Notes: generated from the letters alone by a model not told the origin. 64,000 nt of DNA from an uncultured Alphaproteobacteria bacterium (GCA_944391585.1 CALXUD010000001.1:6385-70384), one strand, 5' to 3'. Positions 31,311-52,200 are shown, counted from the stretch's first letter. Translations and numbers: made by a program.

Positions 31311-32202
31311 GGCGTTTTTAGAAATGATGGCGGCTGAGCGTGGAGCTAGTTTACGTACGGTTGAAGCGTATAGACGAGATTTGGAAGACGTGGACGCTTT
31401 TTTAAAGGCGCGAGCAAAAGAATTGCATAAAGTAAAACGTGCAGATTTAGAAGCGTATATGCATACAGTGGTTCAAAATCATTTGTCGGCAAAAACGCAA
31501 AGTCGGCGTTTGTCTGCTATTCGGGAATTTTATCGGTTTTTATATTCCGAAGATATTATTAAAAAAAATCCGGCCGATTATTTATTGTCACCCAAAGTAG
31601 GAAAATCATTGCCTAAGTATTTAAGTGAATCGGAAATCGGACGATTATTAGATGTGGCAGCACATAAAAACAGGCGAATGAAAACATTGTTGGAAGTCTT
31701 ATATGCTTCAGGAATGCGTGTGAGTGAATTGGTTAGCTTACCCGTTAGTTCCGTTTTAAAGGATGCAAATAGTATTACGGTTATCGGAAAGGGTAATAAA
31801 GAACGTATTGTGCCCTTGAATGAGATAGCGCGACAAGCTTTGGATCAGTGGTTAATGTTGCGAGAGCTGTTGCTTAAAAAAGGGCGCACGAATAAATGGT
31901 TGTTTCCGTCAAGAAGTTCTTCTGGGCATTTGACACGAGATGGATTTTTTAAGGCTTTAAAGGAAATTGCTGTTGAAGCGGGTATTAGTCCGGAGCGAGT
32001 TTCTCCTCATGTTTTTCGACATTCATTTGCCAGTCATTTAATTGCACATGATGCTGATTTGCGATCGGTTCAAAAAATGCTGGGTCATGCCGATATTGCC
32101 ACAACAGAAATTTATACGCATGTTTTAGAGGACAGGCTGAAAAAGACGCTTGAAAAATCACACCCTTTGGCTTATAATCCCCCCAAAGGATTGGATAAAT
32201 GA
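31294..32202 (+). CDS. xerD: Site-specific tyrosine recombinase XerD (XerC/D family)
   Basis: N-terminal 'ERGASLRTVEAYRRDL', C-terminal catalytic 'RHSFASHLIAHDADLRSVQKMLGHADIATTEIYTHV' (R..H..R..Y). Confidence 0.85.
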   Translation: MNKHIEAFLEMMAAERGASLRTVEAYRRDLEDVDAFLKARAKELHKVKRADLEAYMHTVVQNHLSAKTQSRRLSAIREFYRFLYSEDIIKKNPADYLLSPKVGKSLPKYLSESEIGRLLDVAAHKNRRMKTLLEVLYASGMRVSELVSLPVSSVLKDANSITVIGKGNKERIVPLNEIARQALDQWLMLRELLLKKGRTNKWLFPSRSSSGHLTRDGFFKALKEIAVEAGISPERVSPHVFRHSFASHLIAHDADLRSVQKMLGHADIATTEIYTHVLEDRLKKTLEKSHPLAYNPPKGLDK

Positions 32203-33281
32203 AATTAATCAACAAATATATTTTAAAGCAGCTTATTTTGGGCTTTGTGTTAGTTTTGATCAGCATGATAGTCCTGATTTGGTTGATGCAGTCATTAAGA
32301 TTAATTGACATGATTGTAACAAAAGGCGTTTCTGTCGGTATCTTTTTAAAGATGACATTTTTTATTTTGCCGAATTTTATTCAGGTTTTGTCCCCCTTAG
32401 CTTTATTCGCTGTTGTTTTGTTTGTTTATGTACGCATGCAGTCGGATAAGGAGTTAATGGTTATGCGGGCAGCCGGAATGGATAATTTCCAATTGATGCA
32501 AGCTGCTTTAATTTTTGCGTCTTTTTTAACGATAATTGGGTATGCCTTAACACTTTATTTTATTCCGCAATCTAACATTGAATTAAGAGAAATGAAATGG
32601 AAAATACGTAATAATTTATCTCATTTGCTATTGCAGGAAGGACAATTTAACTCTTTTAAAGACGGGTTAACGATTTATGTGAAAGAACGGTTGGGGGATG
32701 GCCAGGTAAAAGGTGTGTTGGTATATGAAAATAAAGGAAATGGAAAAGCCTCCACAATGGTTGCGCAAGATGGGGTTGTTTTTCAGGAAAATGATGAAAT
32801 GCAGGTCGTATTGCATGAGGGAATTCGGCAGGAAGTAGAAGCAGATACCCAAAAGGTTTCTGTTTTGAAGTTTGATAAATATACAATGGTGTTTAATGAA
32901 AACCAACCGAATAAGACAGGACAAATCGGAGACCCTCGGGAATTGTCGTTAAAAACGTTAATTACAACGCCGGCGAGTGATAAAATTGCGCCGGCAACCT
33001 ATCGTAAATATAAAGTGGAAGCGTTAAAGCGGATTATTCAGCCGATTTATAATTTTACATTTGTGTTTATTGCGTTATGCGGGGTTTTAATCGGTTTTTA
33101 TAATCGGCGCGGTCAAATGGCGCAGATTAACGGCACGGTTGTTTTGGCAATCATAGTGCAATCATTGGCGTTGGCGTTTGAAAATATGGCCGGTAAAAAT
33201 TTGATTTTGATGCCGTTAATGGTTATCAATGTCTTTTTACCGATTTTAATTGTGTATTGGATTTTGATTAAAGGAAAAAAA
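32199..33281 (+). CDS. LptF/LptG-family LPS export permease portion of a reading frame that continues without a stop into lptD
   Basis: YjgP/YjgQ-type 6-TM permease signature ('MKLINKYILKQL...', periplasmic beta-jellyroll region, C-terminal TM helices). The frame continues in-phase with no stop codon until 35441. Confidence 0.7.
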
Positions 33282-35441
33282 ATGCGTTGGCCATGGAGAA
33301 AAATTGCAACTGTGTTCTTTATCTTATTGGGAGCGGCACAAACGGCGCAAGCAGCTTCATTCTTTAAATTGGAAACTCCGGATGTATCCAAAAATCAACC
33401 GGTGGATTTTGAATCCGATACGGTTTCGTATAATAATGAAACGGGAATGGTGACGGCGGAAGGTAATGTCGTTATTCAACAAAACGGGACGATTATTCGA
33501 ACACCTAAAATTATGTATGATCGTCAAAACAATCAAATCATTTCCACGGAGCCGGTAGAAACAACGTTGCCGGATGGCACTGTTACCATATCTGATAATT
33601 TAAAAATTTCGGGTGATATGAAACAAGCCGTGGCTGAAGGAATTGAAATTCGGTTATATGAGGGTAGCTTGATAAAATCTGAAAATTTGAAACGAACCAA
33701 TGCCGGACAGGATTTATATTTAAAAAATATTACATATACACCGTGCGATCGCTGTGAAGGAAAAGAGCCTTTGTGGCAATTGCGGGCTAAAGAAATGAAA
33801 CATGATAATGTAGACAAAACCATTCAGTATTATCACACTTTTTTAGATGTGAAGGGCTATCCCATTTTTTATTTTCCATATTTTCAAACGCCGGATTTCA
33901 GTGTGAAGCGTAAAACAGGTTTATTGACGCCAACATTTGGTAGTGGACGTGATTTGGGAACGTCTGTCGGATTGCCGATTTTTATTGATGTGGCAGAAAA
34001 TCAAAATTTATTAATTACGCCTGTAATATCATTTTCGCATGCCCCGTTGGGAATGGTGGAATATGATGGTTTGTTTAAAAAAGGAAAGATGCATTTAGAC
34101 ACAAGCGGAACACAAGATGATGATTCAAATGCAGAAGGCCATGTACGTGCTAATTTCGTATATGATGCCACTCAAAACTGGCGGTTGAACGGGCAGTATT
34201 TTCACGTGTCTAATGACACTTATTTTCGGCGTTATAATTTACCGGAAATTGATGATCAACAACCGTTTTTATATTCTAATTTGACGGCAGAGCGTTTTGA
34301 TAAAAACAGTTATTTCTCGATGGAAGCATTGGGATTCCAAGATTTGAGAACTATTCAATCGCGTAATCGGATTAAAACGGTTTTCCCGGCTATCAATTAC
34401 ATGTATCAAACCAATCCGTTTTGGGGGGATATGTATGCTTTTTCAAATATTAATTCGGCGTTTATTCAAGCAGATCACAGTTTGCGTTCGGATCGGATTT
34501 CTATTGAGCAAGGCGTTCGATTGCCGTATGTAAGTTCTTGGGGCTTAACATCTGATTTTATTGCATCCGTGCGTGGAGATGGATATTACATTGATACCGG
34601 TGCATATGGTTTTTTGGATAATTATGCAGACGATTCTTATTCTTGGGGGCGTATTTATCCGAATGTTTCATTGGAATTGAATTATCCTATGACGTATGTT
34701 TCCGAAAATGTTAGTCAAGTTTTTGAACCGATTATTATGGGGGTTTGGTCAACGAACAGCGGTAATTCAGAAAAAATTCCCAACTTTGACAGTTTGGATT
34801 TTGATTTTGATGACACTAATTTGTTTTCGCGCAATCGGTTTTCGGGTTTTGATCGTGTAGAAACAGGGATGCGCGTTAATTATGGGGCCAGGTGGTCTTT
34901 ATATGATTCGCAAGATCGTTCCATTTCGGCTTTATTTGGTCAATCATATCGACTACATGAAGATCAGAATTTAGGTGGTTTAATGGGAATGGATGATAAG
35001 TTTTCTGATTATGTCGGTCGGTTACAGGTGGATTATAAAGATTTATCGGTTGCTTATCGGTTTCGGTTAGCCCAAGATGATTTTTCTCCCTCTAAAAGTG
35101 AAATTACGGTTATTGGCGGGCGTGATCCGTTACGTTTGGGGGTTGATTATTTATATTTAAAGCCGATGCAATCCGGTGATTTTTATTTTGATAAACGAGA
35201 AGAAATTTTAGTCTTCGGTTCTTCTAAATTTTCAAAGCAATGGTCTGGAACGGCTTATTATCGATATGATTTAACCGAGAATGGTGGGCCGTTGGAAGGA
35301 GGATTTACCATTCGCTATGATAATGAGTGTTTAGCAGTTTTATTAGAGCTGCAAAAATCTTATGCGGAAGATAAGGATTATAAGGGCGATACATCTGTTA
35401 TGTTGAAATTTATTTTAAAAACGTTAGGGGGAAATGAATGA
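33282..35441 (+). CDS. lptD: LPS-assembly outer membrane protein LptD (OstA)
   Basis: Internal ATG at 33282 preceded by an AAAGGA RBS. Signal peptide MRWPWRKIATVFFILLGAAQTAQA. OstA N-terminal domain and ~600-aa beta-barrel region. Gene order lptD-surA-rsmA. Confidence 0.8.
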   Translation: MRWPWRKIATVFFILLGAAQTAQAASFFKLETPDVSKNQPVDFESDTVSYNNETGMVTAEGNVVIQQNGTIIRTPKIMYDRQNNQIISTEPVETTLPDGTVTISDNLKISGDMKQAVAEGIEIRLYEGSLIKSENLKRTNAGQDLYLKNITYTPCDRCEGKEPLWQLRAKEMKHDNVDKTIQYYHTFLDVKGYPIFYFPYFQTPDFSVKRKTGLLTPTFGSGRDLGTSVGLPIFIDVAENQNLLITPVISFSHAPLGMVEYDGLFKKGKMHLDTSGTQDDDSNAEGHVRANFVYDATQNWRLNGQYFHVSNDTYFRRYNLPEIDDQQPFLYSNLTAERFDKNSYFSMEALGFQDLRTIQSRNRIKTVFPAINYMYQTNPFWGDMYAFSNINSAFIQADHSLRSDRISIEQGVRLPYVSSWGLTSDFIASVRGDGYYIDTGAYGFLDNYADDSYSWGRIYPNVSLELNYPMTYVSENVSQVFEPIIMGVWSTNSGNSEKIPNFDSLDFDFDDTNLFSRNRFSGFDRVETGMRVNYGARWSLYDSQDRSISALFGQSYRLHEDQNLGGLMGMDDKFSDYVGRLQVDYKDLSVAYRFRLAQDDFSPSKSEITVIGGRDPLRLGVDYLYLKPMQSGDFYFDKREEILVFGSSKFSKQWSGTAYYRYDLTENGGPLEGGFTIRYDNECLAVLLELQKSYAEDKDYKGDTSVMLKFILKTLGGNE

Positions 35442-38585: not shown

Positions 38586-39323
38586 ATGAATAAATTATCT
38601 TCTTTCATCCTGTTAGTTGTTTTGTGTTTCGTTGTTACGAGAGTATCGGCGCAACATGCTACTTTTTCATATATGACATTTCCGAAATTCACAACACAGC
38701 AAGCAACGTCTGCGGTTCAAAAATCTATTCTGGAAGCTACTGAAAGCCTCTCAGTGGAACAGTTATATACCATGGGAGAGGAAGGTTTGGGGGATTCCGG
38801 AACGGCAACAATGGAATCGTCGGTAGAAGGGGTTACCTTGACAATGCCGGTTCCAACGTTTGTAAATGAAGATATCGGTTTAACAACAGATGTTTTAAAA
38901 GAACCGGAAAAATCTGTTGAAGTCATTAAGGAAAATGTGCAGATGCCGACGCAAGAACAAGCGATGAAAATGACGACGGAAGAATTAAACCAAAAAGCAA
39001 AAGCAATTGCCCAATTACAAACAGATGTTACACGAGATGCTTTAGCCGTAGCACTGGCAAATGTCCAAATTTCAGCTGAACAGGAAACTCGTCAAAAGGA
39101 ATTGGAAGAAACAATTGCCCGATCAACAACGTTGCGTGGAGATATTCAAGCGCGTTCCAAAGCGGCGTTAAGTGTTTTGGGAGAGGTCAATCGATTATTG
39201 GGTGTGAGTTCCAAATATTTGGGATTAGAAGCGGCGCATGCTTTGAGTTCAGCTCAATCCAGTTCAGCAGTTGGGGGGCAAACAGCTGAAACGGATACAC
39301 AAAAAACGGAGAACGCTTCATGA
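38586..39323 (+). CDS. Secreted alpha-helical/coiled-coil protein (246 aa), first gene of the T4SS-containing operon
   Basis: AGGAGG RBS. Signal peptide MNKLSSFILLVVLCFVVTRVSA. Q/A/E-rich helical body. Linked to the next gene by an ATGA overlap. Confidence 0.6.
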   Translation: MNKLSSFILLVVLCFVVTRVSAQHATFSYMTFPKFTTQQATSAVQKSILEATESLSVEQLYTMGEEGLGDSGTATMESSVEGVTLTMPVPTFVNEDIGLTTDVLKEPEKSVEVIKENVQMPTQEQAMKMTTEELNQKAKAIAQLQTDVTRDALAVALANVQISAEQETRQKELEETIARSTTLRGDIQARSKAALSVLGEVNRLLGVSSKYLGLEAAHALSSAQSSSAVGGQTAETDTQKTENAS

Positions 39324-40093
39324 CAATAAAAGGAATGAGCTTTTGTTTATTAGGAGGATTGTTTATTCCAATGGTGGCGTTTGCGTGGCCGATTAAAGAT
39401 TTACAAGGGTTTAAGTCTTTAACGATGGAAAGTGCAGCGCAAGAAGGTGTTAAATCTGTCCAAAATCAGTTGAATAATACAACAGATCAATTGTTAAAAA
39501 TAACCGGCGATTTAGGAAATTTGAATTTTTCTCCTCAATCTTTGTTTAGCACCAATAATAATCCATTGGTTGGAGATATAAAGCCGATTAGTATTTCTGT
39601 CCCATCTTTGGGACTGGATGGAGAAGCGGTTAAAAATACATTTGTAACGCAAGGGGTGTTAAATCAGACCACATTTATGCCAGTAGGAGCGGCGGCTCGT
39701 AATTTGACGACAGATCAAAAAGAAGCGATTTTAGCGCAACAGGAAAAGTTGTCTCAAAATTTGGCTGTTCAAGGTGTTGCAAAGGCAAATGTGGATAAGG
39801 CAAGTGCCGTTCAGATTACAGAAAAAGTTGATGCGGCAACAAAAATGATTAACGCGGCAAAAACCGAAAGAGAGGCAACGCAAGCCTATGCGCATACAAC
39901 AGCAGCATTAGCAACAAATTTTAGTTCTGTGGTGGATAAAGCGTCTGCTAATTTAGCAATTGTTTCATCCGTCCGTTTATCCAGTATTACACAAGTCGCT
40001 GAAATTGATCAAACAACAGAAGAGTCAACCCTGGCAGATGAATCTACGGCAGGGCAAGAAACTTCTTCCTCTTCGGAAACAACAGGAGGTTAA
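39320..40093 (+). CDS. Secreted protein (257 aa), T4SS-operon associated
   Basis: Signal peptide MSFCLLGGLFIPMVAFA. N/Q/A/T-rich body, S/T-rich tail. Confidence 0.55.
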   Translation: MTIKGMSFCLLGGLFIPMVAFAWPIKDLQGFKSLTMESAAQEGVKSVQNQLNNTTDQLLKITGDLGNLNFSPQSLFSTNNNPLVGDIKPISISVPSLGLDGEAVKNTFVTQGVLNQTTFMPVGAAARNLTTDQKEAILAQQEKLSQNLAVQGVAKANVDKASAVQITEKVDAATKMINAAKTEREATQAYAHTTAALATNFSSVVDKASANLAIVSSVRLSSITQVAEIDQTTEESTLADESTAGQETSSSSETTGG

Positions 40094-40094
40094 A

Positions 40095-40748
40095 ATGAAA
40101 CAACACTTAATTTTAACACTTATGTTGGTTTTTCCTGTGTCAGTTCAGGCGACAATGAACATCGGTGAAATTTCAACATCAATTGAATCGAATGCAGAGC
40201 AGTTGGTTGAAAAATCTCAAGAAAAACTAGCAGATCAAGCGGTTAATGTTTCATCGGATATTTCAGGCTCCCTTGTTTCTTCTGTCCGTTCAGCCGTTCA
40301 AATCCCGACACTTTCCAGTGTTGTAGATTCTGAAGAAGCGGTGGCATTGGTACCTTCTCCATTAGCATCAGAATTAGCAAAAGAAAATCCGTCTGTCGCT
40401 GACATTCAAACGTGGGTAAACAAACAAACATTACAAGATGAAACAACACCGGAAACATTGGCTGCAACGGTTGAGAATCAAAAAAATCAACTGTTTGTTT
40501 CAGCTTCCAAAGCATATGCGGTGGCGGTTGATAACCAAGTTAAATCCATTCAAGGACAGCAAGATGCGCGAGATGCAGAAAAAAAAGTGTCGGATGAAGA
40601 TGATTTTATCAGCATGAATAAACAAATGGCTTCAATGACAGCTCAAATGTCTCAGAAGTTAAATGCCATTGGTGGTTTATATGCACAGATGATTGAATTA
40701 AATTCAACCAGCGCATTGATTGGCAAAAATACAGAGGTGCAGGAATGA
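40095..40748 (+). CDS. Secreted protein (217 aa), T4SS-operon associated
   Basis: GGAGG RBS then ATG at 40095. Signal peptide MKQHLILTLMLVFPVSVQA. The track ORF 39960..40748 is a longer TTG-type extension. Confidence 0.55.
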   Translation: MKQHLILTLMLVFPVSVQATMNIGEISTSIESNAEQLVEKSQEKLADQAVNVSSDISGSLVSSVRSAVQIPTLSSVVDSEEAVALVPSPLASELAKENPSVADIQTWVNKQTLQDETTPETLAATVENQKNQLFVSASKAYAVAVDNQVKSIQGQQDARDAEKKVSDEDDFISMNKQMASMTAQMSQKLNAIGGLYAQMIELNSTSALIGKNTEVQE

Positions 40749-42763
40749 AACGGATTTTAAAATTAACGGCAGCTTTTTTTGTTTTGTCAATAGCTTTTCA
40801 AGCACAGGCTGTTTTGACCTTTGAAGCAAGCAAAACAACCTCTTTAACGACGCAAGCTAAAAATGTGGGTGATAAAGTGTCCAGTTATGTATATGAAACG
40901 GCGACCAGCGGATTGCAAGAAGGATCTTTATTGCTGGATAATACCATAAAATCCATTACGGATATTCCGGGTGATATTGTGGAACGGGCAACAGCAATTC
41001 CGGGGCAAGTTACAAAACAATTGACAAATATTCCGAATCAGGTTGCCAGTACACTGAATTCATCAATTAATCGCGTGACCAATATGCCTGGGCAAATGGT
41101 TAATCAGGCAACCGGCAGTGTTTCTTCTATGGCAAATCAAGTAACCAATATGCCGGGGAATACCGTTAATCAGATAACAAGCAGTGTAAATAGTTCGGTT
41201 AATCAGGTAACGAGTGCGCCGGGGAATTTTATGTCGCAAACAAATAGTATGATCAGCAGCACGGCAAATCAAACAATGAATATGCCGGGGAATGTTATTA
41301 ATCAAAGTGTTAGTAGCGTAAACAGTTCTTTAACTCAACTGGGAAATGCCCCGGGAAATGCCGTGAATCAAGCGGTTAGTGGTGTGAATAATGCATTTAG
41401 TTCTGCTACGAATTTACCGGGTAGTTTGACCAATTCTTTGAATTCAGGGATTTCCGGTTCGTTGTCTGAAATCAATAGTATGCCGACAACGGCGGTTAAT
41501 AAGTTGATGGATGGAAACATTTCAACAATGAATCCGTTGGAAAATATAGAATCCAGATTAACCTCATCGGGATTAAATATGAAAAATCAGGTAACCAGTT
41601 TGCCGGATCGGATGACATCCAGTTTAAATAATGCGGTTAGCGGTTTTACAAATTTGCCGGATAATTTACAATCCTCTGGCGATCGTCTTATTTCAAATAT
41701 TACGAGCACTCCGGATAACTTTGCGCGTCAAGGAGAAAATATCTTAAATAATATTACGAATACGCCGGATCGGATTACCTCTTCGGGTGAAAGTATGTTG
41801 AACAACATTACAAGTTCTCCGGATCGCTTGGCTTCTCAAGGGGAGAGTATTTTAAATAATGTAACCAGTACGCCGGATCGCTTATTAAGTCAGGGGCAAG
41901 GCACGATTACGAGTTTGCAAAATATGCCGGGCCAAACATTTTCTCAAATTACGGGAATGCCGGATTCTATTATGAATCAGACTGTGGGATCACTTGAAAA
42001 TACATTCAGTATGAATAATTTAATGGGTGGCTCCTTTTCCAATGCTTTTGGCGGATTAAATATGAACAATGTAGACAGTTATCCGACTCAGGCTTTTTCT
42101 TATATCCAAAATAATGCTACATCCAAAGCAAATTCATTGGCATCCAACAGTTTATCAAAATTTAAAAATTTGGGGAAAGAACAAGCTACAGCGGCGGCAG
42201 GAGCGGCAATCGGGGCTGTATGGAACAAAACAGCGGATTTAATAAATGGCTCAGATTCTGAGCCCGCTCAAAGTGCATCGCAAGGGAAAACGGAAACGGG
42301 TTCAGTTGTTGCACAGACATCCCAAGAGGCTGAACAAGCAGTTGCACAGGCACAAGCTGTTGCGGCAGAACAAGAAAAGTTAAACAAACTGAAAGAAGAG
42401 GTGCGACAAAATTTCTTTTTTGACGGGGAACCGACAACAGAAGAAAGAGAAGCGTTGTTAGCTACTCGGTCAGATAATTTTTCGGATATTGTGGCTAAAT
42501 CGGCTACAATGGCAGAAGGTATGCGGGAAAGTATTGTATCGGATGCGGCAACAACAACGGCAACTCCTATCAGTGGCGCCAGCGTTAAAGAAGATATCAA
42601 TATGAATACTGAAATTATGAAAAAATTAGCGCGTCAGTTGGTGGCTGAAATAGCCGTTCAAAATCAACTGTTTGAATTGGAAGTCGCCGGTGTCATGCAA
42701 TCATTGGATGTAAAACGGCTAGAAATGCCAACTTTACAGACGGAAATAGAAACGGGGGCTTAA
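40745..42763 (+). CDS. Secreted Ser/Asn/Thr-rich tandem-repeat protein (672 aa)
   Basis: Signal peptide (LSIAFQAQA). About seven 22-aa repeats 'TNMPGxxVNQxxSSVNSxxNQV' then about seven 18-aa repeats 'TSTPDRLxSQGESILNNI'. C-terminal coiled coil. Confidence 0.65.
   Translation: MKRILKLTAAFFVLSIAFQAQAVLTFEASKTTSLTTQAKNVGDKVSSYVYETATSGLQEGSLLLDNTIKSITDIPGDIVERATAIPGQVTKQLTNIPNQVASTLNSSINRVTNMPGQMVNQATGSVSSMANQVTNMPGNTVNQITSSVNSSVNQVTSAPGNFMSQTNSMISSTANQTMNMPGNVINQSVSSVNSSLTQLGNAPGNAVNQAVSGVNNAFSSATNLPGSLTNSLNSGISGSLSEINSMPTTAVNKLMDGNISTMNPLENIESRLTSSGLNMKNQVTSLPDRMTSSLNNAVSGFTNLPDNLQSSGDRLISNITSTPDNFARQGENILNNITNTPDRITSSGESMLNNITSSPDRLASQGESILNNVTSTPDRLLSQGQGTITSLQNMPGQTFSQITGMPDSIMNQTVGSLENTFSMNNLMGGSFSNAFGGLNMNNVDSYPTQAFSYIQNNATSKANSLASNSLSKFKNLGKEQATAAAGAAIGAVWNKTADLINGSDSEPAQSASQGKTETGSVVAQTSQEAEQAVAQAQAVAAEQEKLNKLKEEVRQNFFFDGEPTTEEREALLATRSDNFSDIVAKSATMAEGMRESIVSDAATTTATPISGASVKEDINMNTEIMKKLARQLVAEIAVQNQLFELEVAGVMQSLDVKRLEMPTLQTEIETGA
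40955..41995 (+). repeat. In-frame tandem coding repeats (periods 66 and 54 nt) inside the 672-aa secreted protein
   Basis: Recurring aatatgccggg.../acgccggatcg... units directly visible in the DNA. Confidence 0.6.
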
Positions 42764-43573
42764 ATGAAAAAGATATTTTTCAAAATAGTCATGGTGGTTG
42801 GATTGTTAGGCTTTTCTTGGAAAGCGGATGCATGTTTATGCGGCCCCAATACGTGTCCGGCTTGTTGGGATCAAATTATTGAAGGCTTTCCGGTTGAAGA
42901 TCCGACTTCATTAGCTCAGCAGGGGGCAAAGTTGGGAAATGATGTGTCTTCGGCTGTTGCATCCGAAGTGCAAGTGCAGGTAAAACAAAAAATCAATAAT
43001 GCAAAATCTTCTGTGGGAACTGATTTATCTTCTTATATGGTGCCGGACACCTCTTTAAATCAAGCATTCAATACGGGAGAAACATTTACGGCAAATTTAT
43101 CCAGTGATTTGTTGCCTCAATCTGCTTCTTTAACACCGGAAAAAGATGAAAATGCACAAATTGCAACGGCTAAAGGTGAGAACAGTATTGATGAGATTAT
43201 GATTCAGGTTGAAAAAAGTCAATTAAGCTCAAATGCGACATTAGCCGGAGAAATTTATGAAACCAATAAGCGGGCTTATATGCGTCAGGAAAATGTTGTG
43301 GATGCATATGCGAAGGTGTTGTTAATGCGGCAGAATTTGGATGAATTGGTGGAACAAATGGATAAAGAGATAGATAAAACGGCTCAACCGGGAGAAGATG
43401 TAAATGCCGCTTTGCGTTCCAATATGGCGGTTAATAGCATGGTTAGTCAGTTGCTTAGCTTATATCAACAAATCATAGCGGCACGGTTGCAATTTGCAGC
43501 ATTCCAAAAACTGGAGCAAGTAGGGACAATTCAACGTCCGGTTATTCAGTCGGCTTTGGTAGAAAGTAAATGA
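42764..43573 (+). CDS. Secreted protein with Cys-rich N-terminal motif (269 aa)
   Basis: Signal peptide, then 'CLCGPNTCPACW' immediately after the cleavage region. Helical C-terminus. Confidence 0.55.
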   Translation: MKKIFFKIVMVVGLLGFSWKADACLCGPNTCPACWDQIIEGFPVEDPTSLAQQGAKLGNDVSSAVASEVQVQVKQKINNAKSSVGTDLSSYMVPDTSLNQAFNTGETFTANLSSDLLPQSASLTPEKDENAQIATAKGENSIDEIMIQVEKSQLSSNATLAGEIYETNKRAYMRQENVVDAYAKVLLMRQNLDELVEQMDKEIDKTAQPGEDVNAALRSNMAVNSMVSQLLSLYQQIIAARLQFAAFQKLEQVGTIQRPVIQSALVESK

Positions 43574-43584
43574 GAGGAGAAAAA

Positions 43585-45747
43585 ATGAAAACGTTATCCA
43601 TTTCATTGATTGCCTTTTTGGCCGGATGTTTATATTGTTCCGCGCCGGAAGCTCAAGTGAGTTATTCAAAAGTGGAATTTGAGGCACCGAATTTGGTTCA
43701 AGTTGCTGAGCAAACGCGCTCAAATGTGACGGTGATGTGGGCAATGCGGGTTCATAATTTGATTTTTCAACTAAAAGAGTATCAGAAAGCGCGTGAACAA
43801 TTACTGGATGCGCAAGAACGATATGAGCTACAGCAACTACGTTATAAATCTATGATGTTATGTAATGTTAACAATTTAAAGCCGTATTTTAAAGATCCTC
43901 AAAGTGCTTGGTTAAAGGTGTTGGATAAATATGATCGGGATGAAAAAAAATTAGGAATTCAAATTAATACAACAGATGCATCATTAAGTGCTTCGGCTGA
44001 ATTGATTGCTAACACGCCGGGGTTAACTCCGTTATTGTCGTCCTCATCAGAGTCAGATGATTTATCTGAAACCTTTTTAATGTGGTCGTTAGGAAATGGG
44101 ATTTTACATGATGTTTATGCCAATCAGGATGATTGGGGAAATCGGGTGGATAAATCTTTCCCATTAACGGTGGATCAGCAATATATTTATGATGAGCAAG
44201 ATTGGTATGGCAAATATAAAAAAATCAATCAGGCAGCTTGTTGTTTAAATGATTGCGGTATTGGCTATAAGGGAGCACCGGATACCCGTGAAAAATTGTC
44301 TGATGGCACAACATATGATTATCATGGTGATTATAAATACCATGAAAACGGAAAAGTAAAAACAGCGCATGATACTTATATGGCCGCGATTAGAGCGGTT
44401 CATCGCAGAGGGTGTTCCAAACGTTTAACAACAGAAATGTTTACCGAGCCTAAACAGCCGCCACGCCCGTTACCGCCGGTTAATGAAACAATAGTGTTTG
44501 ATGCAGACTCTTATTCTCTTCAACGTCCCCCATTTTCAGAACAGCGCATTTATGAAGGTAATCAAATGAATTTAACGCAGAGTGCTTGGCCGGCTCCGTG
44601 GAAAACATTTATTGAATCAGATTTTAAAACCTATAATGCCAATGGGGCAATGCCCAGATATTTTAAATATAAATCAATTGTTCCGATTGATTTAGAAAGT
44701 CGGACGGCAGAACAATTACAGGCATTTTATGATGCTCAAAACAATCGCTTAAATGCATACCAGGTGTTGAAGAAAGAATTGGATGATGCTAAAAAGATTT
44801 TGGATACTTCCAAAGTTAATTACATTGAAGCAATGCAAAATTTAAGTGCCAGCGTTGCAGATGTGAATGCAGCTATTTCTGATGCGAATCAAAGCAGTTC
44901 TCAATTTCAAGTGTCTGTTTTGACATTGCCGGAAAATTTCAAATTGTTAGAGCAATTTGATTTAGATAATATCAGTACAGATTCGGATTTAGAAAAAACA
45001 CTGGATAAAATTTTGGTTCAAAATAAAAAAGTTTATTATCAAGAAACGCCGGAGAGTGATTTAAAAAGATGGCCGGATATGTTTAATGTTTTGCTAAATA
45101 GTACGCCTGCCGGTAATTTGGTTATTGAGCCTGATAGTGAGGGAATTGGGCGTGTTTATTTAAAACAAACACAAACAATGCCGCTACAAGATTTTGATTT
45201 ATTGACAGATGCCCAAGTCAGCAAAATCACGGATAATTTTAAACAAGTGAAAAAAGATTTCATCGCAAAAGCGTTGGGTGAATTGGCCGCAGAATTACGT
45301 CAGGAACAGGCAGCCTCTTCAGAAGTGCAAGCTATTAAACAAGCGGGAGATGCTGAATTAGCCGAAACAACAGATGTAAAATCTCAAAAAAGCCTCTTCC
45401 AACAAAGGTTGGAACAAATGGTTGCTAATTTGAATGGGATAAATACGGACAGTTTTGTTAATTCCGGTTTTACAAATCGGGAAGTATCGGATAGTTCGAT
45501 GTGGCCGGATGTGATGACGGATTCATCTAAAGAAAATTTGGCAACAGTTTTAGAAGCATTGCAAGCAGATGAAAACGCCGAATTGTTCTTCACGAACACA
45601 AATGCACGGCGTGCCAGTGATTTGAAAAAAGAAAATGCGGCTGTTCAAGCGTTAATTGATGAATGGGAATCTGAAATGAAATCAGTCACGGTTGAAGGAA
45701 CGGCTGCCATTGATGCTAATTGTTTAAATTTGGGGATTTATAAATGA
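43585..45747 (+). CDS. Large lipoprotein (~720 aa), T4SS-operon associated
   Basis: GAGGAG RBS. Lipobox MKTLSISLIAFLAGC. No NTP-binding motif. Coiled-coil segments. Its stop overlaps the virB8-like start. Confidence 0.6.
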   Translation: MKTLSISLIAFLAGCLYCSAPEAQVSYSKVEFEAPNLVQVAEQTRSNVTVMWAMRVHNLIFQLKEYQKAREQLLDAQERYELQQLRYKSMMLCNVNNLKPYFKDPQSAWLKVLDKYDRDEKKLGIQINTTDASLSASAELIANTPGLTPLLSSSSESDDLSETFLMWSLGNGILHDVYANQDDWGNRVDKSFPLTVDQQYIYDEQDWYGKYKKINQAACCLNDCGIGYKGAPDTREKLSDGTTYDYHGDYKYHENGKVKTAHDTYMAAIRAVHRRGCSKRLTTEMFTEPKQPPRPLPPVNETIVFDADSYSLQRPPFSEQRIYEGNQMNLTQSAWPAPWKTFIESDFKTYNANGAMPRYFKYKSIVPIDLESRTAEQLQAFYDAQNNRLNAYQVLKKELDDAKKILDTSKVNYIEAMQNLSASVADVNAAISDANQSSSQFQVSVLTLPENFKLLEQFDLDNISTDSDLEKTLDKILVQNKKVYYQETPESDLKRWPDMFNVLLNSTPAGNLVIEPDSEGIGRVYLKQTQTMPLQDFDLLTDAQVSKITDNFKQVKKDFIAKALGELAAELRQEQAASSEVQAIKQAGDAELAETTDVKSQKSLFQQRLEQMVANLNGINTDSFVNSGFTNREVSDSSMWPDVMTDSSKENLATVLEALQADENAELFFTNTNARRASDLKKENAAVQALIDEWESEMKSVTVEGTAAIDANCLNLGIYK

Positions 45748-46400
45748 AATTAAAAAGAACCATTTCGGATTTGCATCAACGTTCTGTGGCAAAAGGGGGA
45801 GCTTTTGTTGCCAAACTATGGATGGGGCTTGCGCTTTTGTCTATGATGTTAAACTTTTTCATTGTTTTAACATTATGGCAAATTTCGCCGAAATTAGAAA
45901 TCATTTCACAAATTGTTTTTCAAGACGCGTTGACTTCTCGTCAAGGTGTGATTGCTGAACCATTTGATGCCAATATGATGGATAAAGATAAAATCAACGA
46001 AATGCTCATTCGGTATTATTTATCTAATCGCTACAGTGTTTTCCCTGATTATGATGAAATGGCGCATCGATGGGGCCCTAACGGAATTTTAGATCGTTTA
46101 TCGACAGATAACGTGCATTATGCTTTTGCACAAGATGCTTATGGACAATTAGAAGAAATCGATAAAAATCCGCAAACCAGCAGTGTCAGTATTCGCAAGA
46201 TGTCACGGCTGGATAATACATGGACAATCGAACTGGAAGTTTTTACGTTTGATCAGCGGACAGGACAGGTATCCAGTCGCGTTTATGATGTTGTTTTGGA
46301 AACAGCCGTTGATCCGGCTTATGCCTTTTTTAACATTGATTTCATTAATCCGTATGGATTACAGATTGTTGATTTCAGACAAACGCAAAAAAAACAATAA
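45744..46400 (+). CDS. VirB8/DotI-like T4SS inner-membrane protein, paralogue 1
   Basis: Cytoplasmic N-terminus, single TM (LWMGLALLSMMLNFFIVLTLW). Periplasmic domain with 'MLIRYYLSNRYSV' (VirB8 'RYV..RE.Y'-like) and C-terminal 'NPYGLQIVDFR' (VirB8 NPxG motif). Confidence 0.65.
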   Translation: MKLKRTISDLHQRSVAKGGAFVAKLWMGLALLSMMLNFFIVLTLWQISPKLEIISQIVFQDALTSRQGVIAEPFDANMMDKDKINEMLIRYYLSNRYSVFPDYDEMAHRWGPNGILDRLSTDNVHYAFAQDAYGQLEEIDKNPQTSSVSIRKMSRLDNTWTIELEVFTFDQRTGQVSSRVYDVVLETAVDPAYAFFNIDFINPYGLQIVDFRQTQKKQ

Positions 46401-46480
46401 AATCATCATTTTTGTGTTGGATAATTTTTTTTTATGTGCTAGATTAACCCTAGGTTTACTAACTTAAGAAAGGGTGTTGC

Positions 46481-46657
46481 ATGAAAAAATATCTATTTTT
46501 ATTAGGAATTGCCGGCATTTTTGCATTGGTTGCTTGCGGATCCGTTTATGAAAAAGAAACGGTGGGGATTGGTCCGGATTATTCCGAATTGAAAAAATCA
46601 CCGTGTGCTTGTGTGAAATTGGATAATGTACCGGAATTACCCGAATGGTTTTCCTAA
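46481..46657 (+). CDS. Small VirB7-like lipoprotein (58 aa); not in the supplied ORF track
   Basis: AGAAAGGG RBS. MKKYLFLLGIAGIFALVAC has a lipobox (LVAC). ~40-aa mature peptide. It sits between the two virB8-like genes, as rvhB7 does in Rickettsiales. Confidence 0.5.
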   Translation: MKKYLFLLGIAGIFALVACGSVYEKETVGIGPDYSELKKSPCACVKLDNVPELPEWFS

Positions 46658-46674
46658 TTCAGGTGAGCTAATCA

Positions 46675-47361
46675 ATGGTTCAAGAACGCATCGAACACTC
46701 ATCATCTGATTTATCGGAAGAGGCATTAAAAGAACGTCGCTATTTTTGGATGGCGCGCGCTTTTGCTGTTGTGTGTGTGGTGTCGTTTATTACGAACATT
46801 ATTTTAATTGTCGGTCTATTTTCGTTGGTTCCAATTGTGCGCGTGCAGCCATTTTATTTGAATTTACAGGATAAAAATGAACAAGTTATTTCCATTCGTC
46901 GGTCAGATAATTTAAATTTGGATACGGCGTTATTAACTGAGTCATTAATTCGTCAGTATCTGTTGGCGCGCTTAACGATTGGTTCGGATCCCAAAGAGTT
47001 GGAAACAAGATGGGGACTGGATGGTGCTGTGAATTGGACAAGTGAATCTTCCGTTTTCGGGATGTTTGCTGAAACGGCTCAAGCATTGATTGCGCAGGCT
47101 AAAAACGAAGGATTAACACGACGCGTGGACATTTTATCTGTTGTCAAATTACGGGAGGTAGATGCGTCTCGAGATGTGTGGCAGGCGGAATTGAATCTCG
47201 TGGATATGAAACGCGGTTCAACCGAACCATTAACAACGCGTTGGCGTATTGTGATGGAGGTTGAATATCGTCCTAATCGTGAGGGGTTGAAGTGGTCGCA
47301 ACGATTAAAAAATCCGATAGGTTTTACGGTAACGCGGTTTGGTATGCAACAAATAGATTAA
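46675..47361 (+). CDS. VirB8/DotI-like T4SS inner-membrane protein, paralogue 2
   Basis: TM helix (VVCVVSFITNIILIVGLFSLV), 'LIRQYLLARLTIG', C-terminal 'NPIGFTVTRFG' NPxG motif. Confidence 0.65.
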   Translation: MVQERIEHSSSDLSEEALKERRYFWMARAFAVVCVVSFITNIILIVGLFSLVPIVRVQPFYLNLQDKNEQVISIRRSDNLNLDTALLTESLIRQYLLARLTIGSDPKELETRWGLDGAVNWTSESSVFGMFAETAQALIAQAKNEGLTRRVDILSVVKLREVDASRDVWQAELNLVDMKRGSTEPLTTRWRIVMEVEYRPNREGLKWSQRLKNPIGFTVTRFGMQQID

Positions 47362-47439: not shown

Positions 47440-49155
47440 ATGAGTCAAACAAAAATTAAAAAATATGGTTGGGTAAGTGCAATTGCTTTTTGTGCTTTAG
47501 TTGCAATGCCGGTGGTTGCACAACAAGATTTACCGACAAATACGGAAGCCGGTCAATTGGCGGATGCAATTGCTCAGACGGCCGGTGAATACGATGCAAT
47601 GAATTTGAGTTATATTCAGTCGTTTGGTATGCAGCAAAAAGCGTGGAACGATCCGTTGTCTCATTTAGGCGAAGGTCAAACAAAACCGGGGTATTCAAAA
47701 TATGTATGGTCTCCTGATGTTGTGTTGCCGGTGCGTTTGCGCGAAGGGATGATGACATTGATTAACCTGCCAACTTGGGAATTAATTGAAAAGGTTCATA
47801 TTGGATCTCCGGAATCTTTTGGTGGTGAAATTGCCGCGCCGAATTCCTTGTTGGTCTATGCTGATCCGAATTACATTGGTGTTGACTCAAATATGATTAT
47901 CTTTGGTCGCTCCGGTAATCGGTATGTGTTTTATTTACGTAGTGAAACGTATAATACCGATAAAATTACGCACTCTGTTGTTGATGTGTTAACGGGGCCA
48001 AAGTTTACCCCCCAATCGGCAGGAGGAAATTTGCCGGATTTTAATGGCGCCACAGCAACGGCCGCAGGGGCTGGGGCGGGGAATGCTTCCAGCGGCGCAC
48101 CCGGTTGGGCAGGGAAAGGTTCTTCTCTAACGCCGGGAGGTTCTCAAAATCCACAGGTTGGGTTGAATACGGCTTCGACAGGACCGAAAGATTGGCTACA
48201 ATCTATTCCGGTTGACCCGGAAAAATTCCGTTTTGATGTGGAGATGTATTTGCCAAATCCGGCCGACGTAGATATTGCGCCGGAACGGGTATGGCGTGAT
48301 GATATCTTTACTTATATTGATTTAGGGCCGAAAGCGTTGACAATGGTTCAGCGACCGATTGTAAACATGATTGTTCAAGAATCTGAAGTGCCGGTTGGGT
48401 TTAGAACACGGGGCGAATATTCTCGATTAATCGTGGTTGAAGGTGTGGGTGATATGGTGTTGCGTAATGGCCGCAAAATTGTTTGTTTGAAATTGCGGCG
48501 TGATCCGGCTATGGGGTTGGAAAATACGGATTACAGCGGCTCTGAAAAAGCGTTGAACAATTGGAATGCGCCGGCTTTACCGGATTATGAAACAAGTGGT
48601 AATTTATCCAAAGAAGGAAATATAAGCACTTCTCAAGCTAGCGCACAAGGAACGGATATGAATCAATTTAATGCGCAGGCACAAATTAATCAAGATTTAG
48701 CGGATTTAAATGCCCAATTAGGCTTGCAAAGTGGTCGTTTATATTCCAGCTCGGTTTATACACAAAAAATGGCCCCGTTACCGCCGATTCCGGCTTCAGT
48801 AAAACATGCTCCAACGGCATCGGCCGGGATTGTGGATGTGATTGAGCAAGTTTCGTCAAATTCTCGGCGTCAAATCCCGTCTGCTGTGACAGATGAAGAA
48901 ACAATTTCCATTGAATTGGCTTCTAATCCGGAAATTTCGGAATTGGAAAGCGTTTGGGAAAAGGTAATCGCTGATAATCAGGATGTGTTAGCGGGATATG
49001 AGCCGTATTACTCCATTGATGCAACGGCAGATGGGGATGTACGTGAATTATTCCGATTGCGCGTGGGGCCGATGACGGATGTGAAGTCCGCAGATGCTGT
49101 TTGTCAACGGTTAGGGCGGCGCGGATATTCTTGCTCGGTTATTCGGGTGCAATAA
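47440..49155 (+). CDS. VirB9/CagX/DotH-family T4SS outer-membrane core protein, extended to 571 aa with a Gly-rich insert and a C-terminal SPOR domain
   Basis: Signal peptide. N-terminal VirB9 domain ('YVWSPDVVLPVRLREGMMTLINLPTWELIEKVHIGSPESF...NSLLVYADPNYIGVDSNMIIFGRSGNRYVFYLRSE'). C-terminal VirB9 domain ('DDIFTYIDLGPK...RPIVNMIV...GEYSRLIVVEGVGDMVLRNGRKIVCLKLRR'). Terminal 'LFRLRVGPMTDVKSADAVCQRLGRRGYSCSVIRV' is SPOR-like. Confidence 0.75.
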   Translation: MSQTKIKKYGWVSAIAFCALVAMPVVAQQDLPTNTEAGQLADAIAQTAGEYDAMNLSYIQSFGMQQKAWNDPLSHLGEGQTKPGYSKYVWSPDVVLPVRLREGMMTLINLPTWELIEKVHIGSPESFGGEIAAPNSLLVYADPNYIGVDSNMIIFGRSGNRYVFYLRSETYNTDKITHSVVDVLTGPKFTPQSAGGNLPDFNGATATAAGAGAGNASSGAPGWAGKGSSLTPGGSQNPQVGLNTASTGPKDWLQSIPVDPEKFRFDVEMYLPNPADVDIAPERVWRDDIFTYIDLGPKALTMVQRPIVNMIVQESEVPVGFRTRGEYSRLIVVEGVGDMVLRNGRKIVCLKLRRDPAMGLENTDYSGSEKALNNWNAPALPDYETSGNLSKEGNISTSQASAQGTDMNQFNAQAQINQDLADLNAQLGLQSGRLYSSSVYTQKMAPLPPIPASVKHAPTASAGIVDVIEQVSSNSRRQIPSAVTDEETISIELASNPEISELESVWEKVIADNQDVLAGYEPYYSIDATADGDVRELFRLRVGPMTDVKSADAVCQRLGRRGYSCSVIRVQ

Positions 49156-49200
49156 AAAAAGTTTGTATTGAATAGTTTGTTAGAAGATAAGGCAAATAAA

Positions 49201-52200
49201 ATGGCAGAAAATAGAAATTATACCAGTATGTCCGAACAATATGTCAAAAAGAGTAATCGTCGATTACTCATTTTTGGCATTGTGCTTTTTTTGATTTTTG
49301 CATTGGCATTATTTGCCTTATCCGGTCGCAATCAACAAACGGAAGATTTAACGCCGATTGATTATAACACGGACGATTTTGAACGATTAAACAATCCAGA
49401 TGCTTCTTTAACAACGTTTACGCGCGGTAGTGCAACTTTGAAAGTAACACCGGATGTCGTCAATATGGATAATGTCGTATTAGGTTCGAATGTAGAATCA
49501 GTTATCACGTTAACAGCAAACAATGCGCCGATTTTCTTTTTGGGAGCGGAGTTAGCCGAACAACAACAAGATGGGTTTAAATTAGACACCAATTGTGTCG
49601 TAGATAAAGAAATGGCTGTGGGGGAAACATGCAATATCAAAGTATTATGGAATCCGGTTTCTTTATTACAATTGCAAAATAATTTAACGATTACATGGCG
49701 AGAAAATAACCCAACCGTGTTCAGAAATGAAAAAACAGTGGTTCAAATTCGTGCCAATTCAACGGATTCAAAAGATTGTGTGATTTGTGAAAATGTGTCG
49801 GCAGAAGCTAATAAAAAACCGCGGATGGCGGCAGGATTGGATGGTACTTTATATGAAGTTGATGATGATGGATATGTTACGATTGACGGTAAGCGCTATA
49901 AGGTGACGGAAAACGGGTTAATTGTTGATGAAAATGGTAATGTTTTGGGAATTGTTCAACCGGAGCGGTTGCCTTTGGGATTGGATCACAAAGTTTTGGG
50001 AACAATTTCGCAAACGCAGGACGTGATTGATGCCTCCGGCAACAAATTGGGGCGTTTATTGGGCGATGGCACGATTGTGGATCCGAATTTAACGGTCATT
50101 GGTGCGGCTGTACCGGTAGTGTCTGTTATGGATGATAATGGAACAATTGTTGGAAAGTTGTTGGCAGATGGATCTGTGGTTAATGCGGCTAACTCCACGA
50201 TCGGACGGCCGTTGGTAGATGGCTCTGTTATTGATTTACAAGGCAATCATTTAGGATACTTACGCCCATGGGGATTGGTTGTTGATTTTGGTGGATTTGT
50301 TTTGGGGGGCATTACACCAGATGGTGTTGTTGTGAATTCAAAACAACAAAGAGTGGCTGTTGTAAAACCAAATGGATTGGCATTGAATGCATCTAATGAA
50401 TTAGTGGGTGGTGTGGTGCCAACGGGCGTGGCTGTGGGTGCCAGTTGTCAGGCGGTTGGTTCTGTGCAGTTAAATGGACAAGTCAAAGATTCATTTGAAC
50501 AGGTTGTTGGTCGGACATTGCCGGATGGTAGTGTGGTCGATGAACGCGGAGATGAATTGGGCGCTGTTGTAGCTCAAGGATTAGTGATTAACGAAAAAGG
50601 AGTTATTTTAGGGTTTGTTAATTCCGAAGGAAAAGCAGTTGATGCTAAAGGCTCAATGATCGGTTGTGTGAATCCGGATGGTTCCGTGATGGCTGGAAAA
50701 CGCTCGGTTGGTGCAGTGATGGCTAAAGGAACGGTTGTCGGATATGGATGTGAAGTGATTGGTTCTGTTTATCCGAACGGTATTGTGGTAAATGATAAAC
50801 AAGAAGGGGTTGCCCGCGTGTTGGCAGATAAGTATGTTAAAAATGCCAACAACCGAATTGTTGGGGTTGTGATTCCGCGTGGGACGGCAATTGGTGAAGG
50901 GTGTCGTTTGTTGGGATTGATTAATTTAAACGGTCGTGTTGTTTCCACAGAAGGTCAGGATGTTGGCTGTGTGAACATTGAGTTAAATGTATTGGATAAT
51001 GCTGGAAAAGTCATTGGAGCAGTCAATTACAAAGGACAGGTAACAGATGACAATGGAAAAATTATTGGTCGAATTCGGATGGATGGAAAAGTCATTGACA
51101 CCAAAGGGGTTGTCATTGGTTGTGTGAATCCGGACGGTTCGGTTGTGGATTTAAAAGGCGCTCCGTTGGGACAAGTTGTCGGCGTCAGCAATGGAACATC
51201 TCGTCAATCCGGTGTGGTGTTAGATGCAGCCGGCAATCCAACCGGATACACAATCGTCGGAAATCAAGTTTATGACCAAAATGGCAACTTGGTTGGCGAA
51301 TTGCAAGAAAACGGTTGGGTCGTTGATGCTAATGGTCAAATTATCGGCGTGGTCCCGCCTGATGGGGTTATTTATTCTCCAGACGGATTGATTTTAGGTC
51401 GTTATTCTCGTCAAACAGGGGTTGCTGTGGATTTGGAAGGAAATCGTTTCGCGCGAATTTTACCGGATATGACGGCTGTCAGCGGTGAAACATCTGACAT
51501 TATTGGGGCTTTAATTGCAGATAAAACAAGCTTCATGAAGTTGGATGGTTCTTATTTAGGAACAATGCGTATTGACGGTATGATGTTAGATGCCTCCAAT
51601 AATTTAATCGGCGCTATTCGGGCAGACGGAACGGTGGTGGATAAAACAGGTCAAATCATCGGGACGCGCATTTTAACAGGTTCCGTGTTAGGTGTTTTGG
51701 GGGGTGTTATTGGAACAGCTGAGGCGGATGGTTCAGTTATATCCATGGCGAAAACAAAAATCGGCAAAATGTTAGGAAATGGTTTGGCTGTTTCTGAAGA
51801 CGGAAAAGTTATTGGTGCTCTTTTCCCTGAAATTTCAGTTGCCATTGGATCGGATGGAACGATTTTGGGCGGTTTAACAACACAAGGAAAAGTGATTGAT
51901 AAAAATGCACGTGTGATTGGAACAGTTTCGCCGTTTGGTTTTATTTTTGATAGTGCGGGAAAATTAACAGGTCGTTTAGTGCGGGTTGGGGCTTTTGTAG
52001 ATGCTCAAAACCAAACAATCGGCTGGCTTTCCTTTAAAGGAGAGTTAGAAGGAAAAGATCAACGTTCTCGGGCTAAAGTATTGAGCAACGGAGTTGCAAT
52101 TGACAACAATAATTTTGTGATTGGTCAACTTGTGCCGCGGGGTGTTGCGGTAGATGAAAACGGCAATTTTGTCGGCTCTGTTTCCGTGAATGGATTGGTT

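Follow-up and report, generated by a model that had tools for sequence, protein, structure and literature searches.

A conserved array of exported proteins with VirB5-like members encoded next to a chromosomal VirB-type type IV secretion system of uncultured Alphaproteobacteria

Organization of the locus

The genes dealt with here, designated p1 to p6, occupy positions 38586–45747 (+ strand) of a 64,000-nucleotide stretch of DNA (hereafter "the window") from an uncultured Alphaproteobacteria bacterium (GCA_944391585.1 CALXUD010000001.1:6385-70384), in which six back-to-back open reading frames (ORFs) run directly into virB8 and the following core genes of a chromosomal VirB-type type IV secretion system (T4SS). 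These genes probably (we put the probability at about 0.7) encode a stalk or pilus-tip/adhesin module of this divergent T4SS of a gut bacterium, p1–p4 being ancient paralogues of VirB5 and p6 a partner of p5.

All six genes are on the + strand. The products of p1 (38586–39323; 245 residues) and p3 (40095–40748; 217 residues) are predicted exported, helical proteins that are assigned below to a VirB5-like superfamily, and that of p2 (39320–40093; 257 residues), of the same kind, belongs to the family with the clearest match to VirB5. A further putative paralogue is p4 (40745–42763; 672 residues), which in its genus has been enlarged by repeats, 22 and 18 residues long, that are rich in Ser, Asn and Thr, whereas p5 (42764–43573; 269 residues) represents a separate exported helical family, possibly a distant relative of VirB5, and p6 (43585–45747, with an alternative start at 43570; 720 or 725 residues) an exported, mostly helical family. 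The starts agree with the public gene calls. The original prediction, which described six translationally coupled signal-peptide proteins, gave p1 one residue too many (246), the other five lengths being correct, and the overlap of stop and start codons that it noted is found as 4-nucleotide overlaps at p1/p2, p3/p4 and p6/virB8a (the divergent virB8 copy), p2/p3 being separated by one nucleotide and p4/p5 simply abutting; p5/p6 have either a 4-nucleotide overlap or an 11-nucleotide gap, depending on the start chosen for p6. Promoter and terminator scans remained at chance level.

Hydropathy analysis places a single hydrophobic 19-mer in each of the six proteins, N-terminal in every case, with no membrane segment elsewhere, and a motif scan found no Walker A sequence in any of them, so that the earlier description of six consecutive signal-peptide ORFs comprising neither a polytopic protein nor an NTPase is borne out, the signal peptides being called by hydropathy and motif heuristics and not by a trained predictor. 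The block as a whole had been described as low-complexity or coiled-coil rich; p4 is the only truly repetitive protein of the six, with approximately seven 22-residue and seven 18-residue repeats, all degenerate. Matches of p4 to phage tape-measure families in PHROGs were rejected as a product of its repeat composition, and searches of the six window proteins against Pfam, NCBIfam and PHROGs gave nothing meaningful; in particular, no toxin or enzyme domain was found in any of them with Pfam and NCBIfam.

The ratio of non-synonymous to synonymous substitution rates (dN/dS) of p1–p6, determined against two relatives whose p6 is ~74% identical, ranges from 0.05 to 0.22 (0.09–0.22 for p1), with the qualification that dS is saturated (>1); these values mark all six as true genes, constrained by purifying selection.

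Conservation of the array in related genomes

More than 1,200 clusters homologous to the VirB9 of the window were found, and those having a name are labelled uncultured Alphaproteobacteria. A genome scan with a VirB9 alignment as the only guide gathered 80 species-level loci (VirB9 being 43–77% identical), all in genome bins obtained from the gut or rumen of human, sheep, yak, roe deer and rabbit. Four of the T4SS contigs (L006, L045, L048, L082) lie in bins labelled Lactobacillales, Holdemanella biformis or Limosilactobacillus gorillae, probably as a result of binning or labelling errors.

Local iterative searches detected homologues of p1–p6, in the same order and directly upstream of the first VirB8 gene, in ~60 of the 80 loci. 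Gaps do not exceed 20 nucleotides at >90% of the junctions, including 63 of the 68 between p6 and virB8, and hydrophobic, signal-peptide-like N termini are retained in the orthologs of every position, or slot, of the array. Each slot has its own orthologs across ~55 species, with that of p3 filled in 54 loci. The usual ortholog sizes are, from p1 to p6, ~300, 260, 255, 270, 280 and 520 residues, and p4 and p6 of the window are therefore enlarged versions, p4 having 672 residues instead of the usual ~270. Five is the most common number of small genes per locus (39 of the 53 loci having enough upstream sequence), and a double-length gene is present in several of the four-gene loci. This prevalence of five genes, together with the slot-specific orthology, favors non-redundant roles of the proteins over a recent amplification of the type described for the Trw system of Bartonella.

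The p proteins evolve faster than VirB8b (the canonical VirB8 copy) and VirB9, being 64–81% identical within the genus of the window, as compared with 90–93% for the latter two. The C-terminal 100 residues have an alignment occupancy of 0.79–0.98 as opposed to 0.34–0.72 for the N-terminal parts, which are rich in insertions and deletions.

The array is linked to virB8 in all of the ~70 contexts examined, rearranged ones included. In five loci virB9–virB11 are separated from the upstream part. Six contexts beyond the 80 loci, namely the genomic surroundings of the divergent p6 homologues retrieved by an exhaustive search, all have p6 immediately upstream of virB8 (6/6); in one of them, L088, which is likewise split from virB9–virB11, the p genes, p6 and virB8 are still together.

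Position of the array within fuller virB operons and gene fusions

A divergent relative, L086, has a more complete operon, which begins with virB2 (TrbC), a VirB3-like ORF, virB4, four small signal-peptide genes and a gene for a 1109-residue protein and continues with virB8, a 59-residue gene, a second virB8, virB9 and a giant virB10. With virB4 on one side and virB8 on the other, the block takes up the place of VirB5/VirB6 in the operon. The plasmid-borne VirB4 closest to that of L086 (37% identity) is encoded by pMVF16-3 of Microvirga sp. VF16 (L093, 14036–29202), where virB2-B3-B4 are followed by the genes for Mv273 (signal peptide), Mv228 (three membrane segments) and Mv428 (signal peptide) and then by those for a 58-residue lipoprotein, VirB8–VirB11 and VirD4, a MobA relaxase being also encoded on the plasmid. 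The motif KKSPCAC is common to this lipoprotein and to the VirB7-like protein of the window. A location after virB4 and before virB6 or virB8 is thus a property of L086 and of pMVF16-3, the window itself having folD before p1 and no virB4.

The placement between virB4 and virB8 in L086, the order and tight coupling to virB8 in ~60 species and the joint retention in L088 all uphold the proposal that the block belongs with the T4SS.

Neighboring genes of the array are fused in some lineages. The 1109-residue protein of L086 (7642–10971) is a p5::p6 fusion, its two parts being recognized by the profile hidden Markov models (HMMs) of p5 (residues 3–250; E 2e-21) and p6 (residues 269–1099; E 2e-48); a second p5::p6 fusion, of 835 residues (gene call P0302), exists in another lineage, and in L089 (7581–9254) a 557-residue tandem fusion has p3- and p4-like parts.

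One could imagine, on the basis of the genomic position of the six genes, that their products are not parts of the machine and are instead cargo that leaves the cytoplasm through Sec, or form in the periplasm a complex that the T4SS then releases. A precedent exists in pertussis toxin, whose five subunits have signal peptides and are encoded immediately before the ptl T4SS genes, in the same transcript; the signal peptides on all six proteins, their location just upstream of the T4SS genes, the lack of virD4 after virB11 in the window and the lack of T4SS homologues of p5 and p6 would conform to such an arrangement. However, the homologues are found between virB4 and virB8 both in L086 and on a Microvirga plasmid that bears a relaxase and VirD4, p1–p4 are homologous to a structural subunit, VirB5, and none of the six has a toxin or enzyme domain; more specifically, neither an ADP-ribosyltransferase A subunit nor OB-fold B subunits were found among them with Pfam and NCBIfam, and a helical structure is predicted for these proteins. 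Cargo is accordingly an improbable explanation.

Homology with VirB5

No paralogy among the six proteins is detected by an all-against-all BLASTP comparison, and profiles were needed for this purpose. The slot HMMs were compared with a set of seven genuine VirB5 proteins (Ti plasmid VirB5, IncN TraC and those of IncX4, Phaeobacter, Moraxella, Acinetobacter and Stenotrophomonas), the test database for profile and iterative searches consisting of 9,950 sequences.

In this database, the p2-slot HMM matches the Phaeobacter plasmid VirB5 over its full length (E 9e-7) and, reciprocally, the HMM built from the seven VirB5 proteins finds exclusively p2-slot proteins (E 1.5e-7 to 6e-3) and Mv428, and nothing unrelated. 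The same p2 HMM matches Mv428 with E 1e-7 among the 11 proteins of the pMVF16-3 locus and E 9e-5 in the whole database, and the p4 HMM matches Mv273 with E 4e-6 and E 0.004, respectively. None of the p-slot HMMs matches a decoy in which the signal peptide is kept and the remainder shuffled; these decoys, retaining the true first 25 residues, are a valid control for the p-slot HMMs and are unsuitable for the HMM of the VirB5 set and for VirB5-seeded jackhmmer, where they were ignored.

Iterative searches extend the connection to the other slots. Starting from window p1 or p2, jackhmmer collects ~200 proteins of the p1–p4 slots together with Mv273, Mv428 and genuine VirB5 (E 1e-11 to 8e-13, the p1-seeded search reaching it at E 1e-11), without recruiting a single unrelated ORF from the database; the p3-seeded search reaches Mv273 (E 7e-17) and Mv428, and the searches seeded with p4 and p5 are confined to their own slots. 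In hhalign comparisons with the VirB5 set the probability is 82% for p2 and 86.6% for p3 (E 4.5e-6, over the C-terminal helices), the values for p5 (15.6%), p6 (28%) and the VirB8 and VirB9 controls (0.1–2%) being far lower.

By these profile relationships, p1–p4 form one VirB5-like superfamily, lying below the curated thresholds and predicted to have a helical fold. Thus, of the families and candidates put forward by the original prediction, the VirB5-like one fits p1–p4 in profile, hhalign and iterative searches, whereas for the CagM/Cag3/CagT-like one no similarity of sequence or fold was found; the designation "unknown family" no longer suits p1–p4, as remote homologues of VirB5, and is still appropriate for p6, which has no known relatives, and for p5, which is a family apart. 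No homology with unrelated housekeeping periplasmic proteins, by which the original prediction would have been undermined, was found, and the absence of the genes from syntenic loci, also named in this respect, does not occur in close relatives and is seen in a distant clade having housekeeping genes at the site.

The VirB5/TraC/TrwJ/TrbJ family (PF07996), whose members serve P-type T4SS as minor pilin and as subunit of the stalk tip, is the closest known family. The resemblance extends to a size of ~220–300 residues, a Sec signal peptide, an all-helical prediction, the position of the gene after virB4 and before virB8 (in L086 and in the Microvirga plasmid) and the reciprocal profile matches (p2 slot) and iterative links (p1, p3, p4). 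On the other hand, the single gene is replaced here by four or five paralogues, strongly diverged and fixed in their order, the scores are under the Pfam and NCBIfam thresholds, virB6 does not adjoin and the fold is a predicted one; the superfamily link, furthermore, joins p1–p4 and leaves out p6.

The p5 and p6 families

With 62 orthologs, p5 is a family of its own, characterized by a Cys-rich N terminus of the mature protein (CLCGPNTCPAC) and a conserved C-terminal helical hairpin. Its AlphaFold2 model is all-helical and of low confidence (predicted local distance difference test, pLDDT, 45), too poor for a fold search; the fold of reference for VirB5, that of TraC (PDB 1R8I), is a bundle of three helices with a globular appendage. 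In five loci the p5-slot protein joins the VirB5-superfamily search, and p5 can be regarded as a separate helical family that is possibly a distant relative of VirB5.

An exhaustive search for p6 among 1.84 billion representatives yielded 57 clusters at E≤1e-3. None of 58 members has a Pfam match and no sequence match exists in the PDB, the PDB sequence-profile searches with p6, p5 and p3 having returned noise only. The AlphaFold2 model of p6, obtained from 44 sequences, has a pLDDT of 72 and a predicted template modelling score of 0.68, and in it long helices predominate, the beta elements being small. Cys93 is fully conserved and Cys713 almost fully, a conservation that fits an exported protein. 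Profile comparison led to the rejection of p6 as a relative of VirB9 or VirB8 and, by the same kind of evidence, p6 appears unrelated to VirB5.

The last protein of the block had been described as a lipoprotein and in the window p6 does have a lipobox (LAGC, Cys15); the pattern, however, occurs in 9 of 68 orthologs, five of them from the genus of the window and four scattered and probably due to chance, so that a lipoprotein status is predicted for p6 of this genus and is not a general property of the family. Both p5 and p6 are new protein families, now placed in a clear functional context.

Proposed role of the array

The stalk of the R388 T4SS contains a pentamer of VirB6 topped by one of VirB5, and as the pilus grows VirB5 is carried outward at its tip (PMC9259494). 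In the mechanism proposed here, p1–p5 would be exported through Sec and would assemble as a stalk tip at the center of the machine, p5 entering as a related or convergent helical protein and the lineage-specific p6 being bound to p5, as the fusions of the two suggest; all six proteins would be made from one transcript with virB8–virB11. The conserved C-terminal helices might supply the assembly interface, with the indel-rich N-terminal parts facing outward, and the tip, once pushed outward, would contact the target cell. Co-transcription, the site of assembly, the stoichiometry and a role as adhesin are inferred, whereas the genes themselves, their export signals, their embedding in the operon, the homology of p1–p4 with VirB5 and the p5::p6 fusions are shown.

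A more specific version, in which the stalk or tip is an obligate hetero-pentamer of the four VirB5 paralogues and p5, replacing the VirB5 homo-pentamer of R388, with p6 as an asymmetric cap or adhesin, is in our judgment unlikely. Should this stoichiometry be correct, an rvh-like machine would possess a built-in asymmetric tip and might preserve a VirB5 module that was lost by the rvh system of Rickettsiales. Little is understood of VirB5, although it is the subunit by which a T4SS meets its target cell, and a system with four or five old paralogues of it in a fixed array, together with a dedicated partner, offers a natural test of how a pentameric tip is built and how its specificity is encoded.

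Several observations weigh against the assignment of the six genes to a VirB5-type tip module. None of the six proteins is recognized by a T4SS model of Pfam or NCBIfam, PF07996 remaining unmatched at E≤1, and within the p1–p4 family this model is touched by 2 of 150 members, with a best E of 4.5e-5 and both below the gathering score (the best score, that of the L049 p4 ortholog, is 24.2 bits, the gathering score being 24.7), as compared with E 1.5e-19 and E 1.7e-26 for the reference VirB5 proteins of Phaeobacter and IncX4. The VirB5 link of p1, p3 and p4 is partly transitive, going through unannotated Microvirga proteins, and profile scores can be inflated by helical, compositionally biased proteins; there is no high-confidence structure among p1–p5, p5 has no significant VirB5 link in the 9,950-sequence database, and p6 has neither a detectable relative nor a fold match (nothing below E 2 with Foldseek against the PDB). 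Furthermore, no gene for VirB2, VirB3, VirB4, VirB6 or VirD4 lies within the 64-kb window and, finally, a more distant clade (VirB9 ~45% identical) has the arrangement virB8-virB8-virB9 with no p genes adjoining.

As to the first of these points, the archetypal Ti-plasmid VirB5 (Agrobacterium tumefaciens-type, L094 6634–7296) itself has no PF07996 match at E≤1, and a missing match is therefore weak evidence against a VirB5 identity. Its sole match is to DUF4141, in the N-terminal part, and a DUF4141 match is also seen in some p2 orthologs (L018, L028). As to the distant clade, the possibility that diverged p5 and p6 genes precede virB8 was considered and rejected, the genes found there being those of a DEAD-box helicase and an esterase.

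The same clade, along with the housekeeping genes folD, ksgA and surA upstream of the block in the window, would be expected if the six were unrelated envelope or surface proteins that merely happen to adjoin T4SS genes. Chance vicinity is nevertheless highly improbable, given the linkage to virB8 in every context seen, even where the surroundings are rearranged, the insertion of the block inside the operon of L086 and the homology of p1–p4 with VirB5.

A different use of the same proteins would be as interchangeable variant tip adhesins, present one at a time or in mixed pili and serving host or target specificity or immune evasion, without being obligate partners. The system-level parallel closest to the present one is the Trw T4SS of Bartonella, in which trwJ (VirB5), trwI, trwH and trwL are amplified in tandem and variant tips have been proposed (PMC2883598). 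Like the locus studied here, Trw is a chromosomal T4SS of an animal-associated alphaproteobacterium, with tandem VirB5 copies evolving faster than the core and with no coupling-protein gene at the locus (PMC2883598). The tandem VirB5-like paralogues, their low within-genus identity relative to VirB8b and VirB9, the N-terminal indels, the genus-specific expansion of the p4 repeats and, as in Trw, the absence of an adjoining virD4 could all be accommodated by such variation. Yet the duplications are old, with slot-specific orthologs in fixed order across ~55 species, whereas the Trw copies are recent, variable in number, recombined and co-amplified with VirB6 and VirB7 (PMC2883598); here the amplification does not extend to VirB6 and VirB7, and p5 and p6 are added as two further families. 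Moreover, the dN/dS values give no sign of whole-gene diversifying selection, and the fusions between neighbors (p3::p4-like in L089; p5::p6) fit co-assembly better than alternation. Variant tips are for these reasons a rather improbable alternative, and the tip or stalk module made of cooperating, non-redundant subunits is preferred.

A comparison of organization may also be made with the Cag system of Helicobacter pylori, where CagL is a VirB5-like protein accompanied by CagI and CagH, and CagM, Cag3 and CagT are accessory proteins. Adjacent exported helical proteins beside a VirB5-like protein and a giant repeat-containing VirB10 of CagY-like size are common to both, the resemblance being one of organization only, as no sequence or fold similarity to any Cag protein was detected. 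What is new at the present locus is the fixed array of ancient VirB5-like paralogues with two new families, p5 and p6. The conservation of this chromosomal T4SS in uncultured gut and rumen bacteria of humans, ruminants and rabbits suggests that they interact by contact with cells of the host, with protists or with other bacteria.

The T4SS core and its relation to rvh

Downstream of p6 the genes follow one another, all on the + strand, in the order divergent VirB8, 58-residue lipoprotein, canonical VirB8, VirB9, VirB10, VirB11 and racemase. VirB8a (45744–46400), whose start overlaps the stop of p6, matches PF04335 below the cut-off (E 7e-4; 20 bits), whereas VirB8b (46675–47361) matches it with E 5.5e-15; the two are 21% identical, and hhalign of their families gives a probability of 100%. 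Between them lies the gene for the VirB7-like 58-residue lipoprotein (46481–46657; lipobox LVAC, motif KKSPCAC), a protein 98–100% identical in relatives. VirB9 (47440–49155) matches PF03524 (E 7e-13) and PF05036 (E 1e-4); it is long (571 residues) and ends in a SPOR peptidoglycan-binding domain that is kept in many relatives. The giant VirB10 (49168–55764; 2198 residues, 2171–2653 in relatives) has 13 stretches matching the PF21785 5-fold beta-flower repeat, a PF03743 (TrbI) domain at the C terminus and also DUF3659. The VirB11 ATPase (55780–56766) is recognized by PF00437 and TIGR02788 (E 1e-39), and it is followed by a gene for an Asp/Glu racemase, not by virD4 (55780–57458 for the two together).

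This core architecture resembles that of rvh, since the order VirB8a-VirB7-VirB8b-VirB9-VirB10-VirB11 corresponds to rvhB8-II, rvhB7, rvhB8-I, rvhB9-II, rvhB10 and rvhB11 (PMC4676284) and the T4SS genes are in both cases set among housekeeping genes (PMC2653234, PMC4676284). The differences are that VirB5 is absent from rvh (PMC2653234) and represented here by four or five VirB5-like genes, that the gene before the divergent VirB8 is p6 and not a copy of VirB9 and that no virD4 follows virB11. The rvh system has, in addition, duplicated VirB4 and VirB9, five VirB6 paralogues and virD4 after virB11; within the 64-kb window there are one VirB9 and no VirB4, VirB6 or VirD4. The divergent RvhB8-II has been described as not found outside Rickettsiales (PMC4676284); a VirB8-VirB7-VirB8 arrangement, described as peculiar to Rickettsiales, is now found in genome bins of gut and rumen Alphaproteobacteria, and its occurrence together with VirB5-like genes bears on the evolution of rvh. 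Both VirB8 copies of the window (45744–47361) carry the NPxG motif, unlike RvhB8-II.

Flanking genes

Upstream of p1 are xerC/D, a gene for an LptF/G-LptD fusion, surA, ksgA, a small PF1765-like gene and, directly before p1, folD, and the remainder of the window likewise consists of housekeeping genes. The LptF/G-LptD fusion (32199–35441, +; 1080-residue ORF) comprises an LptF/LptG inner-membrane permease (residues 6–356), an LptC/LptD_N jellyroll (~399–486) and an LptD outer-membrane barrel (657–1015), and fusions of 1080–1095 residues are found also in the relatives L001, L003, L089 and L090; a single chain going from the inner to the outer membrane in the lipopolysaccharide export bridge would be unusual. 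Elsewhere in the window, a 1382-residue protein (3166–7314, −) combines GT2, GT8 and GT4 glycosyltransferase domains.

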